Translations under genes and position numbers: made by a program
Part shown: positions 1,369 to 53,479 of the stretch, piece after piece
Position numbering within the stretch: the first letter of the stretch is position 1
Layout of the letters: the number at the start of each line of letters is the position of its first letter
NCBI GenBank assembly: GCA_964016885.1
Contig: OZ024746.1
Span: 93,744,001 to 93,808,000 of the forward strand
DNA: 64,000 bases
Direction of reading: 5' to 3'
Source: Eledone cirrhosa
Taxonomy: Eukaryota
Notes under the pieces: model-generated
Seen by the model: the letters and a program-made list of their open reading frames with translations, nothing else
Database searches by the model: none
What the model was told of the DNA's origin: nothing

Positions 1369-1414
1369 TTCAATGATATTAAATAAATGGAAACTATATT
1401 TATAAAACCATATT

Positions 1415-1475
1415 TATTCTATTATATATATTTCAAGGGCACCAAAACTTTGGTACGCTTTCATCAGATAAAATA
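1415..1475 (-). ncRNA. Minimal type I hammerhead ribozyme, family H1 copy 1
   Basis: - strand: TATTTTAT CTGATGA AAGCGTACCAAAGTTTTGGTGCCCTT GAAA TATATA T A ATAGAATA; full core, 8-bp stem I, stem II hairpin, palindromic stem III. Confidence 0.8.
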
Positions 1476-1654
1476 CAAAGTTTGTTTTATAAATTTTGAC
1501 ATAACCAAGGAAAGATACCTTAACGATTCAAGTTTTCCACTATCCAAGGAATGTTTAGTGATTTATTTATTAATCACAGGATATTATTATATATTTAATT
1601 TAAATTGATTAGACAAATTTATATAATTTTTTTTTTAGAGCTCAAATATGACAC

Positions 1655-1995
1655 AGCCATTTGGGAGGATGAAATTCGGCCCAAGATGTTAAAAGCCTTA
1701 AATAAAGAAGGTATTTTCTGGATGACTTGTGTGTGCTGGGTGGCCTGGATCTCTGGAAAGACACCTAAACAATGTCAATTGGGAGTGATAATCCCAATTT
1801 TCAAAAAGGGTGACAAGAGAGATTGTTCCTATTATAGAGAGATCTCCTTGTGAAGCCTCCCTGGTAAAGTCTATGCTAAGTGTCTGGCAAAGAGATGTAG
1901 GGAGATTGTCAATTCCAAGTTAGCTGACGAACGCAGCACATTCAACCAAATATTAACACTGGGGCAGGTCTTTGAGAACTCTTGGGAGTATTGTC
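1655..1995 (+). pseudogene. RTE-clade LINE reverse transcriptase fragment
   Basis: EDEIRPKMLKAL...GVIIPIFKKGDKRDCSYYREISL*SLPGKVYAKCL, an RT N-terminal motif with a stop. Confidence 0.85.
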
Positions 1996-2044
1996 ATGAA
2001 CAGAATTGACATACGCAGCCAGGTTCGAAGTAATATCACAACCT

Positions 2045-2312
2045 CCGTCGGTTACGACGACGAGTGTCCCAGTTCAAAAGAACAGCCTGCTCGTAAAATT
2101 AACTTGCAAGTGACTGAGCATTCAACAGACATTGTACCATTAAAAACTCGTGTCACAGAGTGTGAAAAGTCTGGCCCCTTTTCATCACAGATACAACTCA
2201 TATTTTTTCTAGCTGAGTGAACTTGAAATAAAGTATTTTGCTCAAAATTTCGACGGATCGAACTCATGATGTTACGACTGTGAGCCAAATACTCTAACCA
2301 CTAAGCCATGTA
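2045..2312 (-). mobile_element. tRNA-derived SINE (family B)
   Basis: Reverse complement of TGGCTTAGTGGTTAGAG head and GAGTTCGATCC B box, with shared body. Confidence 0.75.
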
Positions 2313-3114
2313 CCTTCTCTACGTATGCTATGGTATTCTGACAACTTTATCGATGGTGTGTGCGGAGAAAAGTAAATTGCATCATCATCATCATACTCAT
2401 CATCATCTCCATCAATGTCATCATTACCATCGTCATCATCATCACCATCATCACCGCCACCACCATCACCATCACCGTCTTATGTTTATTTTCCATGTTT
2501 GCATGGGCCAGATGTGTTGACACATTCTGAGGCCAGGCGTGTCAGATGTCTGCCTCTTGATCACAAAATATATATTTTTTCAATACCAGTCACTGAGATT
2601 AAGATGTTTTATGTTCTCTGCGTAAAATAATTCAATACATCGATTTACACATAAATTGTCTGAATTGACAGTATTTTTCTTTTTTAAAAAAGACAGCAAA
2701 GAGCTGTTTGAGAGATGTGGTTTCTGCTCCAGCGTCAACTTGGGTCAGTTTTAAAAAATGAGTGACGTCGAATTTGTTAGGAGTTGTACACCTTGGAATT
2801 TTTTCTTCTTCCCTGAGCACAGTTGGTCGACTTGATGGAATATCGAATGATCCGAAAGGTTGGGAGTTCGCATCGTGTAGACCAGTAATGGGGAAACTGC
2901 GGTCCGTTTGGCTATCTGAATAGTAGTGCGGCCCACTCCTCGAAAAAGGTTGCCCATGCCTGGTGTAGCCAATATATTGTTAAGTTTGTGGCTGGCCACA
3001 CGCTTCAAATCTTAAATAGTTCAGTCTACCTACGTTAAACATAGATGGCCCAGGAGCAGGATAACTTTGCCACTTTAAACAACATTATAAAATTGTTGTA
3101 ACTTAATGGCGAGG

Positions 3115-3410
3115 GTGATCGGCTCACTGCATTATGGTTGTAAGTTCGATTCCCGGTGATGCGTTGTGTCTTTGAGCAAGACATTTTATTTCACGTTGCT
3201 CCAGTCCACTCAGCTGACGAAAATGTGTTGTACCTGTGATTCAAAATGCCAGACTTGTCACATTCTGTATCACGCTGAATCTCCCTGAGAACTACGTTAA
3301 AGATATACATGTCTATGGAATGTTCAACCAATTGCACTTTAATTTTACGAACAAGATCTTCCGTTTTTCGAACAACTGGGAAACTTGTCGTCAGAACCAA
3401 TGAAGGTCCA
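3115..3410 (+). mobile_element. tRNA-derived SINE (family B)
   Basis: GTTCGATTCC B box plus CGTTGTGTCTTTGAGCAAGACATTTTATTTCACGTTGCTCCAGTCCACTCAGCTG body. Confidence 0.8.
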
Positions 3411-3939
3411 ACACACACACACACACACACAGAATAAAATTGATGTGTGATTGTTAGCATGTAGTCTTGAGTTCAGATTCCTATTGTGTGGTTGTGGACG
3501 GCAAGGGGAGATCACTCTCGTGGTATTTTCTTACGTAGAAACACCATGTGAGCAATTTTTCGTTGCTGTCCCAACAAATAACCGGATTATGTGATTCCCT
3601 AACATGACGCAGTACATTAGAACACATTGTAAACTCGCCAAAACCTTTAAACTGAACAAGTAATCCTACATGCGGGGCTGGCGTTACCATTAAGGCCAAC
3701 TAGGGAGCAGCCTCGGGCACAGACCTCAAAAGGGTGCATTACTGAACCTTAAAAACTGAGGTTGATGTAAAATTGTATGATTAAATTAAATATATAATAA
3801 TTTCCTGCGATCAGTAAATAAATAAGTCGTTAAACATCCTTGTCACAGAGCAATAGGAATATCCGAAACAGTGGAGAAGGTCGTATGGCATTATGTCTTG
3901 TTACATGATTTGGCGTGGGTGAGTGTGGTCTGTGTAGTG

Positions 3940-50768: not shown

Positions 50769-50974
50769 TGATGTGGCCTTTGTGTCACTAATTCTACTTG
50801 AAGATTATATTAAAAGTACGTCTGTGGAATACTCAGTACATCCAACACTAATTCAATAAGTTCTTGCTGGAAGATTTTATGATTTGTTTCTTTATTGTTT
50901 TGTTAGTATCAGGCTATAACTTGATATCAACCCACTACTCTGAGTATTGTACAAGAAAGCTGAGAGGGTATATG

Positions 50975-51350
50975 ATTTCTCCAGTGGCAACCTAGTTTAG
51001 TCCGCGACTAATCCAGGCTCTGCTGCACTTCGAGCCGAGGAGGGTGAACTCTCCAAATATCGGTTACTTTCTGACATGTTTACAGTCAAGCCTTTAGCAG
51101 TGGAGACTTCTGGTGTCCTTGACCCTAGGACCACCTCCCTACTCACCACCATCAGCACGGAGTTGGCTACACGCAGGTGTGAGTCTCGCGAGCTGGAATG
51201 GCTCTTCTAACCCATTTCCCTCATCATCCTTCGGGGAAATGCCTTCTCTATCCTGTCCGCCGTGGGGTGGCCAGTGCATTGGCCCCCATTTGCTTATAAT
51301 AGTGAGAGATGGGGAGAACGAAAGAGACGGAGGCAGTGAGTGGAAGAGAG
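50975..51350 (+). mobile_element. CRE-like retrotransposon 3' fragment
   Basis: FSSGNLV*SATNPGSAALRAEEGELSKY...PLAVETSGVLDPRT...LEWLF*PISLIILRGNAFSIL; overlaps the 15873 and 12790 fragments. Confidence 0.8.
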
Positions 51351-51636
51351 AGAACATCAACACTTATTTACTTATTTATTTATTTGTATTTACCTGTATT
51401 GTTTGATGTGTTATGTTATACAATCCAGGGTCCTTGCAAAGACCATCCTTCAAGAATCTGTGGAGAGGGTGGGGAGAAAGAGAGTAAAAAAAAAAAGGAT
51501 GAACAGACAAGATTAAAGACAAACCATTAGTGAAGATACGCGACCATGACAGATAGGAAGATTGGAGTACAGCATGTCACCGTGGTTTCCCTTCAATTGA
51601 ATCAGGAGTTTAGGGCCTACGATCAGGGCCTACGAT

Positions 51637-52061
51637 CAGGGCCAGATTTAATGGGGAGTAAAGGGAGCAATTGCCCCTGGCCCCCTGTAGTGTGTGGGAG
51701 GGGGCACCAGCGACGGCTGTAGCAATTTATTTATGGATGGTTAGAATTTTTTAATTTAATACCTGTATGTTTAACTTTTTCATTCCAATTACTTGCCCCA
51801 AACTAACTTTGATATGTAAAATTGGGGACAGGGGGTTGCTGTGTATTCTAATTTTGGGGGTTATAAGAACCACACCCCTGAAGTGCCCCTGGGCCCCCAC
51901 GGGAGACCTGTCAACTCTCCTAATCCGACAAGGAGATCACCCACCTACTTTGGGGTGGGTGAGAGATGTTTTCTCTTGCGAAAATAGGTATAGCCTTCAT
52001 TATATAAAATCTCCCCATTTGGGGTTTTAGAGGTCTGCCCCAAGGTCTAAAGCCAATCCTG
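51637..52061 (+). mobile_element. hAT-type MITE with an internal insertion
   Basis: CAGGGCCAGATTT...AATCCTG, TSD CCTACGAT/CCTATGAT. Confidence 0.75.
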
Positions 52062-52608
52062 CCTATGATACGATAAGAGTTCGCTCTTGTATCGTCCCAA
52101 TTTCTTGGGCCCTTGTGGCCAATAAAAGAAACCATCATAATCTTCATCATCATCATCACCGTCATCATTACGTTTAGATTTGAAGTTTCTGTTTATCGCT
52201 TCATTTCTCTGAATAAAACCATAAAGAATATAAATGGGAAATCTTTATCACTAATTAATAGGGTGAAGAAGATAAAATATAATTAGATCGATTATATGGT
52301 TAGCGGAGAGTAGTGGGCTGGGATAGGGAGAAGAAACAAGGACGGCAACATGAGAACAATAGAAGCTCGTGCGGATAAATAAGTAGACTATTATAATTTG
52401 GAGTAGTGTTTAGGCATGGCGAGCGACATACAAGTACTTTTCTAGGGGGAGGGGAGAATGTAAGTGTGTGCGGGATAGGTCAGCGTTTTAAACTATTTTA
52501 ACCCCCTATCTCTCTCTCTCTATATATATATATATATATATATATATATAAATTAATAAAAACAATGAATAAAAACAAAGAAACAGTTCCTTATATTAAA
52601 AAATTCAT

Positions 52609-52736
52609 CATTTTACGATCGTTTCTAGGATATATATGTGTGTTGGTATGTATATCATATAGATCTATATAAACATTTTACAAACTATCAGAGGGAATAT
52701 ACATACCTACACATATATAAGCTGTCTTCAGAAATA
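52609..52736 (-). ncRNA. Hammerhead-like motif with long stem II, family H2 copy 2
   Basis: - strand: TATTT CTGAAGA CAGCTTATATATGTGTAGGTATGTATAT...ATATACATACCAACACACATATATATCCTA GAAA CGATCG T A AAATG. Confidence 0.55.
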
Positions 52737-53001
52737 ATACGGAATATATATATATTGTATTGTTTTTGTAAAACGATATATATCTTATATATATATACTT
52801 TATATAATATAAAAGTAACGAAGATCGTTGGTATTAAGTCAACGACATATATATATCTTTTATTTATACATGGAAAGTTATATTTAAATTGTTGGGTTAA
52901 CAACGAGTAAATATTTATAACTGATATAAAAGCACTCAACAAGTATTTGGAGTATATTTATGATATTAAATAAATGGAAACTATATTTATAAAACCATAT
53001 T

Positions 53002-53067
53002 TATTTCGTTATATATATTTCAGGGATATCATATTAACAATATGTTATGCCTTCCTCAGACAAAATA
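53002..53067 (-). ncRNA. Minimal type I hammerhead ribozyme, family H1 copy 3 (divergent)
   Basis: - strand: TATTTTGT CTGAGGA AGGCATAACATATT GTT AATATGATATCCCT GAAA TATATA T A ACGAAATA; compensatory A-U to G-C change in stem I. Confidence 0.85.
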
Positions 53068-53479
53068 CAATATAAACAGTCTTATAAATAAATAGATAGA
53101 TAGATACGACATACCTTTCAATCACCTTGCATTTGGGAGGTTGATTTATTTATATATATTTTATATTTATAAATATATATTATATATACATATATATATA
53201 TATATAATAGAGGTAAATAGATGTATTTTAATTTATTCATATCCGCCGCCACCCTCTCGAGCTTTTATTTGTTTGTTTCCTTCTAACAAGTACCTATTTG
53301 TGTCTATTTTCTTTCCATGCTTCAGTTCACACGAACTATTGTTCTTGTTGTTGTTGTTGTGGTGGTGGTGGTGATAATAGTGGTAGTTGTTGTTTTTCTT
53401 TTTCTTTCTTACCTTCTCTTCCTCCCCGCTGTCTCTCTCTCCCTGCTGGTTAACTTCTCTTCACCTTCTTCTCTCTCTC

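Follow-up and report, generated by a model that had tools for sequence, protein, structure and literature searches.

Hammerhead motifs in the Eledone cirrhosa genome as probable pseudo-LTR ends of a Penelope-like element with Hydra-clade motifs

The window analysed here, a 64-kb stretch of DNA from Eledone cirrhosa (contig OZ024746.1, positions 93,744,001 to 93,808,000 of the forward strand), contains three hammerhead ribozyme motifs, all on the minus strand, which are very probably the 3' pseudo-long-terminal-repeat (pseudo-LTR, pLTR) ends of 5'-truncated copies of a Penelope-like element (PLE) bearing Hydra-clade motifs. On this reading, drawn from sequence, the copies lie at (TA)n repeats, the ribozymes would be likely to cleave only in pairs, and most of the RNAs that templated such copies would likely have been uncleaved. 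A first-pass annotation had reported three complete hammerhead cores on this strand, and a type I descriptor run over both strands returned exactly these three matches, with cut sites where that annotation had placed them (H17 is A at 1423, 39000 and 53010, in the triplet AUA) and with C3 at 1467, 39047 and 53059. Strict and loose forms of the descriptor were each compared with 100 dinucleotide-type shuffles, which gave means of 0.0 (maximum 0) and 0.02 matches, respectively. The motifs have the type I core CUGANGA, GAAA and UH and three helices, and are open at stem I. As delimited by the descriptor, they are:

1415-1475, minus strand: hammerhead 1 (stem I 1475-1468/1422-1415; CUGAUGA 1467-1461; stem II 1460-1435; GAA 1434-1432; stem III 1431-1424; H17 1423)
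38992-39055, minus strand: hammerhead 2 (core 39047-39041; stem II 39040-39012; GAA 39011-39009; stem III 39008-39001; H17 39000)
53002-53067, minus strand: hammerhead 3 (CUGAGGA 53059-53053; stem II 53052-53022; GAA 53021-53019; stem III 53018-53011; H17 53010)

Each match has a stem I of 8 bp, a long stem II with a C.C mismatch at the fourth position, A-U instead of G-C at pair 10.1-11.1, and the stem III AUAUAUAU, self-complementary in all three as had been claimed. Copies 1 and 2 are 90% identical, and the identity of copy 3 is about 82-84%. The compensatory changes attributed to copy 3 were likewise recovered: G-C replaces A-U at pair 2 of stem I, with U.G at pair 3; two further double changes in stem II keep the pairing; and N7 is G. 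The Rfam hammerhead models do not cover this variant: there was no hammerhead among the 150 listed of 188 window matches, nor among the 16 matches (E up to 10) on the stretch containing copy 2. Rfam microRNA matches were rejected as spurious products of (TA)n repeats and of a fold-back at the 5' end of copy 2.

Genome-wide counts are exact pattern matches in 3.0 Gb, not curated copy numbers. The core pattern with the four middle bases of stem III left free gave 79,097 matches (0 for the reversed-pattern control), the core with an (AU)4 stem III gave 24,406 (control 8), and a 28-nt tail motif gave 27,476 (control 0). The figure of about 79,000 is no record, since 126,247 hammerhead motifs have been reported for axolotl (PMC7229834). 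A copy-2 query returned 1,349 candidates, of which the 40 best-scored were 98-100% identical, and 30 loci taken in genome order showed 88-99% identity; these values suggest that part of the family is young.

Other repeats were seen at the sampled loci. Locus L206 carries a further hammerhead variant (3276, minus strand), whose stem III is again (AU)4 and whose stem II is GC-rich and of another sequence. A separate repeat of about 200 nt flanked by (TA)n is common to several loci (L010:56-268, L027:190-624, L003, L014, L020 and L023); on its opposite strand a CTGAC/GA...GAAAC-like stretch was noticed by eye, possibly marking another hammerhead-bearing family.

The core has to be compared between lineages rather than within one, since dead copies decay neutrally. 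The sample for this purpose consisted of the first 100 copies that the tail motif retrieved, and was hence unselected for the core; 15 were dropped as truncated or deleted, leaving 85 that were parsed with up to three mismatches tolerated per half. The core is intact in 76 of the 85. Its only polymorphic position is N7 (U in 54, G in 16, A in 14, C in 1), any other core change occurring once or twice. Mean deviation is 1.2% over 12 core columns as against 35% over 12 columns upstream of stem I, the latter value being inflated by indels. Stem II pairs alternate between G-C and A-U and between U-A and C-G, 84 of 85 copies retain the C.C mismatch, and pair 10.1-11.1 is mostly A-U, with G.U and U.U also found. 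Covariation was scored in 26 hand-picked rows, comprising 24 of 46 stem II clusters and two window copies: 96.6% of stem cells are paired, and there are 28 double-change cells as against 9.1 after shuffling, with none of 500 shuffles as high. Read across lineages, the core is conserved and stems I and II covary.

The hammerhead motif is, as judged from sequence comparison, the 3' pLTR end of a protein-coding PLE with Hydra-clade motifs. An AT-rich stretch of ~1.1 kb upstream of the longer copies begins with the C-terminus of an endonuclease (EN), and a reverse transcriptase (RT) fragment beside one copy gave 20,650 candidates in the genome. Twenty 10-kb loci were taken around RT matches; at 15 of these 20 loci selected for the open reading frame (ORF), two of the 15 being apparent duplicates, a hammerhead lies on the same strand downstream of the ORF. 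The full layout is start motif, hammerhead, tail, ORF, 3' untranslated region (UTR) of ~1.1 kb, and then start motif, hammerhead and tail again; the hammerhead and both 3' ends described below fall in the 5' UTR, ~190 nt before the ATG. Locus L059 has the order pLTR, ORF, UTR and hammerhead; at two places a copy-1 type hammerhead lies ~2.8 kb downstream of RT matches; and copy-3 type hammerheads are linked to an ORF in L199, L183, L225 and others, this ORF being ~65-70% identical in its RT portion. In a sister family, whose stem III is AUGCGCAU, the linked ORF is 51% identical, and in the member L259 of that family a Hydra-type ORF is unbroken over 809 codons (1665-4091, plus strand) between an inverted and a direct hammerhead, making it a candidate for a recently active copy.

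The single ORF specifies a telomerase-like RT, with a YRDD motif and a folded model (mean pLDDT 71) whose top fold matches are telomerase reverse transcriptases (TERTs; E 8e-10). Further motifs are RLRW/RWK-like (the RWK position reads RLRWR/H/C/T, with K replaced), DKT (reading SDKT), a CxCx5C linker (CNCRIKLNC), a C-terminal GIY-YIG-like motif, and, next to E and N, CxxC and CxH (CKLC and CRH, or CNLC and CLH). The GIY-YIG EN is identified by motif alone, from VYKC...YVG and IYEC...YFG followed by R, E and N. A Pfam search of the ORFs returned nothing meaningful, a sequence search of the PDB found 0 matches, and the 92 database relatives are at most 41% identical and nearly all unnamed. As in the Hydra clade, the EN is C-terminal with no N-terminal EN, a canonical hammerhead lies near the 3' end, and insertion is into (TA)n; the Naiad clade, with its N-terminal EN and no canonical hammerhead, was rejected on the first two counts. 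Units measured from hammerhead to hammerhead are 3.3-3.9 kb owing to the long 3' UTR; these units exceed the <3 kb of the Hydra clade, a length given in the source as a tendency and not a rule (PMC8557442). The structures usual for PLEs are also present, namely pLTRs arising from partial tandems (L059, L199, L226 and L265), inverted 5'-truncated copies and an optional tail.

The window copies themselves are bare pLTR ends without an ORF: a tblastn search with the element ORF against the 64-kb window gave no match and no ORF remnant. All three begin at or a few bases from the start motif CACTATCC, copies 1 and 2 with short inversions. Their features are:

1369-1551, minus strand: copy 1, 5'-truncated pLTR end of the putative Hydra-clade PLE, with the short 3' end, adjoining (TA)n; other loci match over 1551-1305 at 94-97%
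1539-1551, plus strand: 13-nt inverted piece of copy 1, the reverse complement of the presumed first 13 nt of the element (the start motif) by comparison with longer relatives, its role as start site being inferred
1179-1369, no strand: (TA)n-type microsatellite bordering copy 1 on its 3' side, the likely target
38948-39150, minus strand: copy 2, pLTR end running from its start motif at 39127 as far as the short 3' end at 38948, where (TA)n (38947-38925) takes over; 98-100% identical to the 40 best-scored relatives
39131-39150, plus strand: 20-nt inverted (fold-back) piece at the 5' end of copy 2, seen in the sequence, the source of spurious Rfam microRNA matches
52866-53147, minus strand: copy 3, sister-family pLTR end bearing the long 3' end (tail of ~95 nt); 96.8% identical over 282 nt to the 5' pLTR of L199, a pLTR-ORF-pLTR copy
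52866-52958, minus strand: tail of copy 3 between the short and long 3' ends, which by alignment is the element's 5' UTR

The common downstream tail noted earlier is real, reaching (TA)n in copies 1 and 2 and extending ~95 nt further in copy 3. This additional part opens with an ACTC...GAGT hairpin (52954-52932) which sister families also have, and which, by analogy with the work in PMC11167929, may have a role in RT initiation. Of the first-pass reading of a structurally constrained, probably self-cleaving mobile RNA, the constraint, the mobility, the Penelope-type type I hammerhead and the likely action as a dimer have stood, and the stand-alone RNA family or retrozyme has given way to the 3' pLTR of a protein-coding element. 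Head-to-tail 170-400-nt repeats, each with a hammerhead and without an ORF, would mark a non-LTR retrozyme, and this is not the arrangement found.

Two discrete 3' ends exist, ~45 and 140 nt past the cut site. Among the 100 tail-sampled copies, 61 stop at the short site, where they meet TA-type repeats, 37 have the tail of ~95 nt more, and 2 end otherwise; the tail aligns with the 5' UTR of the element. All 19 head-to-head pairs in this sample combine one short and one long 3' end (p = 2e-6), which fits the two RT start sites and two-strand priming described for an anole element (PMC11167929). One further such pair, belonging to the AUGCGCAU sister family, lies ~1.4 kb to the right of the window end (L267:1368, minus strand, and 1500, plus strand), again with one short and one long end.

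At the other end, all the large families that were checked have the start motif CACTATCC, at 49-90 nt upstream of C3, and this motif fits an initiator consensus. Of 30 copies, 9 begin at its A, where 5' ends gather, and 21 continue upstream into the UTR. Junctions of (TA)n with this A number 297 (control 21). In a hand count of 100 listed junctions the base before the A is G in 37, directly T in 37, a templated C in 14, A in 9 and an extra T in 3; a control site 46 nt upstream gave 13 junctions (control 5), none with G (Fisher p = 0.005). A non-templated G is a signature of a reverse-transcribed cap, and its frequency together with the pile-up at CACTATCC points to a capped start. At the cut site, by contrast, no peak was found in the GCGC family, where 4 of 50 distinct junctions fit (hand count among 100 listed rows) and are scattered no differently from the others, so that cleaved linear RNA was rejected as the main template there and most RNAs copied into the genome were likely uncleaved; in the (AU)4 families microhomology to the target confounds the same test.

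The octamer ATTTGCAT lies ~46 nt upstream of the start motif and ~126-137 nt upstream of C3, and is conserved in the copy-1 and copy-2 type families (for example L059 near 2920). As a universal promoter element it was rejected, being absent from the copy-3 type and GCGC families.

Stem III was examined by hand in the first 100 rows of the listing of 79,097 matches. The middle four bases are ATAT in 34, GCGC in 32, ATGT in 25, ACGT in 2, and GTAT and GTGC in 1 each, with five others, and in 95 of these 100 the stem is self-complementary when G.U pairs are counted; among the words are three palindromes of Watson-Crick type and an intermediate with a wobble pair. The central two bases move from U-A through U.G to C-G although they are neighbours, a covariation that pairing between two hammerheads explains and pairing within a single strand cannot. 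In the predicted monomer, stem III has at most two A-U pairs and a pairing probability of 0.0, and it is predicted to be stable only as a duplex between two motifs. It is therefore probable, on this sequence evidence, that these hammerheads cleave only as dimers. A dimer model for PLE hammerheads is already published (PMC4209133; PMC6765202), and dimer cleavage by Lunse et al. is recounted in the review PMC6765202.

Predicted folds of all three window motifs include outer arms able to lengthen stem I beyond an internal loop:

1493-1484/1408-1399, minus strand: outer stem I arms of copy 1
38976-39073, minus strand: possible outer stem I extension of copy 2, arms 39073-39064 and 38985-38976
53088-53079/52995-52986, minus strand: outer stem I arms of copy 3

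The case for this extension is weak because each arm contains the palindrome TTTATAAA. A loop II/stem I pseudoknot, for which copy 1 has a perfect 8-nt complement, was rejected, since copies 2 and 3 and the other families do not, by eye, preserve it.

These observations can be assembled into a scheme. Capped transcription would start at the A of CACTATCC in the pLTR, and the RT-endonuclease would nick (TA)n and prime at one or the other of two internal sites. A cDNA primed in the 5' pLTR and extended to the cap would yield solo copies of 180-280 nt such as window copies 1-3, and priming of both target strands, one at each site, would yield head-to-head pairs. There is good reason to favour this part, in which solo copies are short cDNAs run to the cap. 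The least certain steps concern the ribozyme: two hammerheads, such as those at the two ends of a full-length transcript, would meet, form stem III between them and both cut; the unit RNA would be ligated to a circle; and longer-than-unit cDNA would restore the upstream promoter, so that this minority route alone would found new master copies and keep the core under selection. Of the seven hammerhead pairs spaced by one unit, four have a seamless 5' pLTR reaching 140-730 nt upstream of the start motif, for which a capped unit RNA alone cannot be the template and for which a circle, read-through or strand transfer would serve. A cut-and-ligated circle as template was put forward as a hypothesis in PMC4209133; we regard the circle route as tentative, falling short of an even chance. 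Rather unlikely, though worth stating, is the combined proposal of two routes from one transcript, with capped uncleaved RNA giving dead solo and head-to-head copies by the tens of thousands, every pair primed once from each internal start, and a dimer-gated double cut giving the circle as the only promoter-rebuilding template.

Several points weigh against parts of this account. Within the 26 rows, the number of pairs with a change on both sides is within the shuffle range (55 of 500), and relatedness inflates the covariation counts, with few independent lineage changes beneath. The predicted AUAUAUAU duplex amounts to only -3.2 kcal/mol, AUAUGUAU is predicted to form a 6-bp duplex and not the 8-bp wobble form, and stem I pairs only weakly in the predicted monomers, at probabilities of 0.1-0.4. 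Assignment to the Hydra clade is by motif and not by phylogeny with named references. Several families lack the octamer that precedes the start motif. Seven of the 37 extra-G cases could be micro fold-backs; without these the figures are 30 vs 12 (p = 5e-7). Longer-than-unit copies can also be explained by read-through or strand transfer. Lastly, hammerhead mutants of the anole element had no effect on insertion in vitro, and no RNA-seq reads ended at its cut site (PMC11167929).

The most serious rival, which we would put a little below an even chance, retains the same element and makes the hammerhead a brake or processing signal without a circle. Paired cleavage would separate the 5' UTR from its cap and the 3' end from its RT start sites, or it would trim read-through or multimer transcripts, and the longer-than-unit copies would come from read-through or from strand transfer via the terminal redundancy (start motif, hammerhead and tail at both ends); it explains less directly why core and palindrome stay intact in all of the master lineages, which are ~51% identical in protein. 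An unlikely alternative is that the motif folds and is kept for a non-cleavage role, for example as a protein-binding or RNA-dimerisation signal for the RT-endonuclease. Every full copy does span the cut site, the near-invariant C.C mismatch of stem II (84/85) is unneeded for catalysis, and metazoan PLE hammerheads cleave poorly in vitro (PMC4209133); yet the conservation of 12 catalytic columns with N7 alone free is the pattern expected of a working ribozyme, and the anole hammerhead cleaves with protein help (PMC11167929).

That the solo 180-280-nt copies form a separate non-autonomous family, retrozyme- or SINE-like (short interspersed element), with masters and circular RNAs of its own, is very unlikely, even though many copies are short with a common discrete 5' end and retrozymes are held to derive from pLTRs (bioRxiv 10.64898/2026.07.22.740005). 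Short tandem arrays were absent from the three window sites, pLTRs from copies that have an ORF are matched by the short copies at 92-97%, many copies run on upstream into the UTR (21/30), and the 5' end, which has a cap-like G, is not at the cut site. Chance matching in AT-rich, low-complexity DNA has a negligible probability: an (AU)4 stem III in an AT-rich region, with whole-region fold z-scores of only -2.2, -2.5 and -0.5, might have invited it, but the empty strict shuffles and the 79,097 matches against none for the reversed pattern refute it, and the stems covary.

The Hydra clade, its hammerheads, its (TA)n targeting and an octopus member are already in print. Compared with that clade as described by Craig et al. 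2021 (PMC8557442), which includes Hydra-1_Obim, the elements here are alike in the single RT-EN ORF, the RWK-like and DKT motifs, the CxCx5C linker, CxxC/CxH around a conserved E and N, the canonical hammerhead near the 3' end, (TA)n targeting, and tandem and inverted structures. Hydra-1_Obim differs by eye in its N-terminus and its hammerhead (listed stem III acca-a-tggt), and is 2507 bp long as against units of 3.3-3.9 kb. An even 8-nt stem III palindrome, longer stems I and II and the C.C mismatch set the present hammerheads apart; the tail is ~95 nt instead of 30-40, and there are tens of thousands of copies where a small number of families was reported. PAc, a Poseidon element of Anolis carolinensis (Frangieh et al. 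2024, PMC11167929), shares the hammerhead in the pLTR, two RT start sites bounding a tail, AT-rich targets and uncleaved RNA as main template; it belongs to another clade, its ORF begins within the hammerhead, and its RT start sites lie within the ORF.

The minimal PLE hammerheads of Cervera and de la Pena 2014 (PMC4209133) are likewise type I, with a long stem II, an unstable palindromic stem III, mostly solo copies with some close opposite-strand pairs, and a dimer model; here, pair 10.1-11.1 is mostly A-U (also G.U and U.U) instead of G-C, stem I has 8 bp, and the 8-nt palindrome shows lineage-level covariation of its inner bases, which may already have been reported by Lunse et al. Non-LTR retrozymes (PMC7229834; bioRxiv 10.64898/2026.07.22.740005) have in common the type I hammerhead, short dispersed copies and pLTR origin; the copies here lack 170-400-nt tandem monomers, are tied to an autonomous ORF, and have 5' ends at a capped-type start and not at the cut site. 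An annotation of octopus repeats lists 31 recently active Penelope-like families, ribozymes going unmentioned in its accessible part (PMC13282606). The literature search, from which subscription papers mostly fell outside, found no paper on the present element families, on a cap-G signature in PLEs, or on the short/long rule.

The remaining repeats of the window are of other kinds. A 403-codon stop-free frame at 40520-41728 (plus strand) encodes a LINE-type RT with a YADD motif, which we take to be RTE-like, and similar fragments lie near 1640-2100 and 16200-16830 and, by eye, just upstream of copy 2. A weak 5S rRNA-like match at 45843-45953 (plus strand; 34.9 bits, under the gathering score of 38) is perhaps a 5S-derived SINE head. 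Minisatellites occur at 1-503, 13281-14344, 33323-34171, 42869-44753 and 49133-49712, with periods of 34, 79, 45, 30 and 48 bp respectively and 91-98% match.

The function of PLE pLTR hammerheads has been described as unclear (PMC8557442). What E. cirrhosa offers is a very large expansion, young in part, of a clade that had been reported as small, and its lineages are numerous enough for mechanism to be read from sequence: covariation for which only pairing of two ribozymes accounts, a fixed 5' end with a cap-like G, and, in inverted pairs, the strict rule of one short and one long end. Host transcripts reading through any of the ~79,000 motifs or the many inverted pairs could also be cut or folded by them. 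If the proposal of two routes were true, the ribozyme would be a full-length checkpoint for the founding of master copies, of which the ~79,000 genome copies would be the record.

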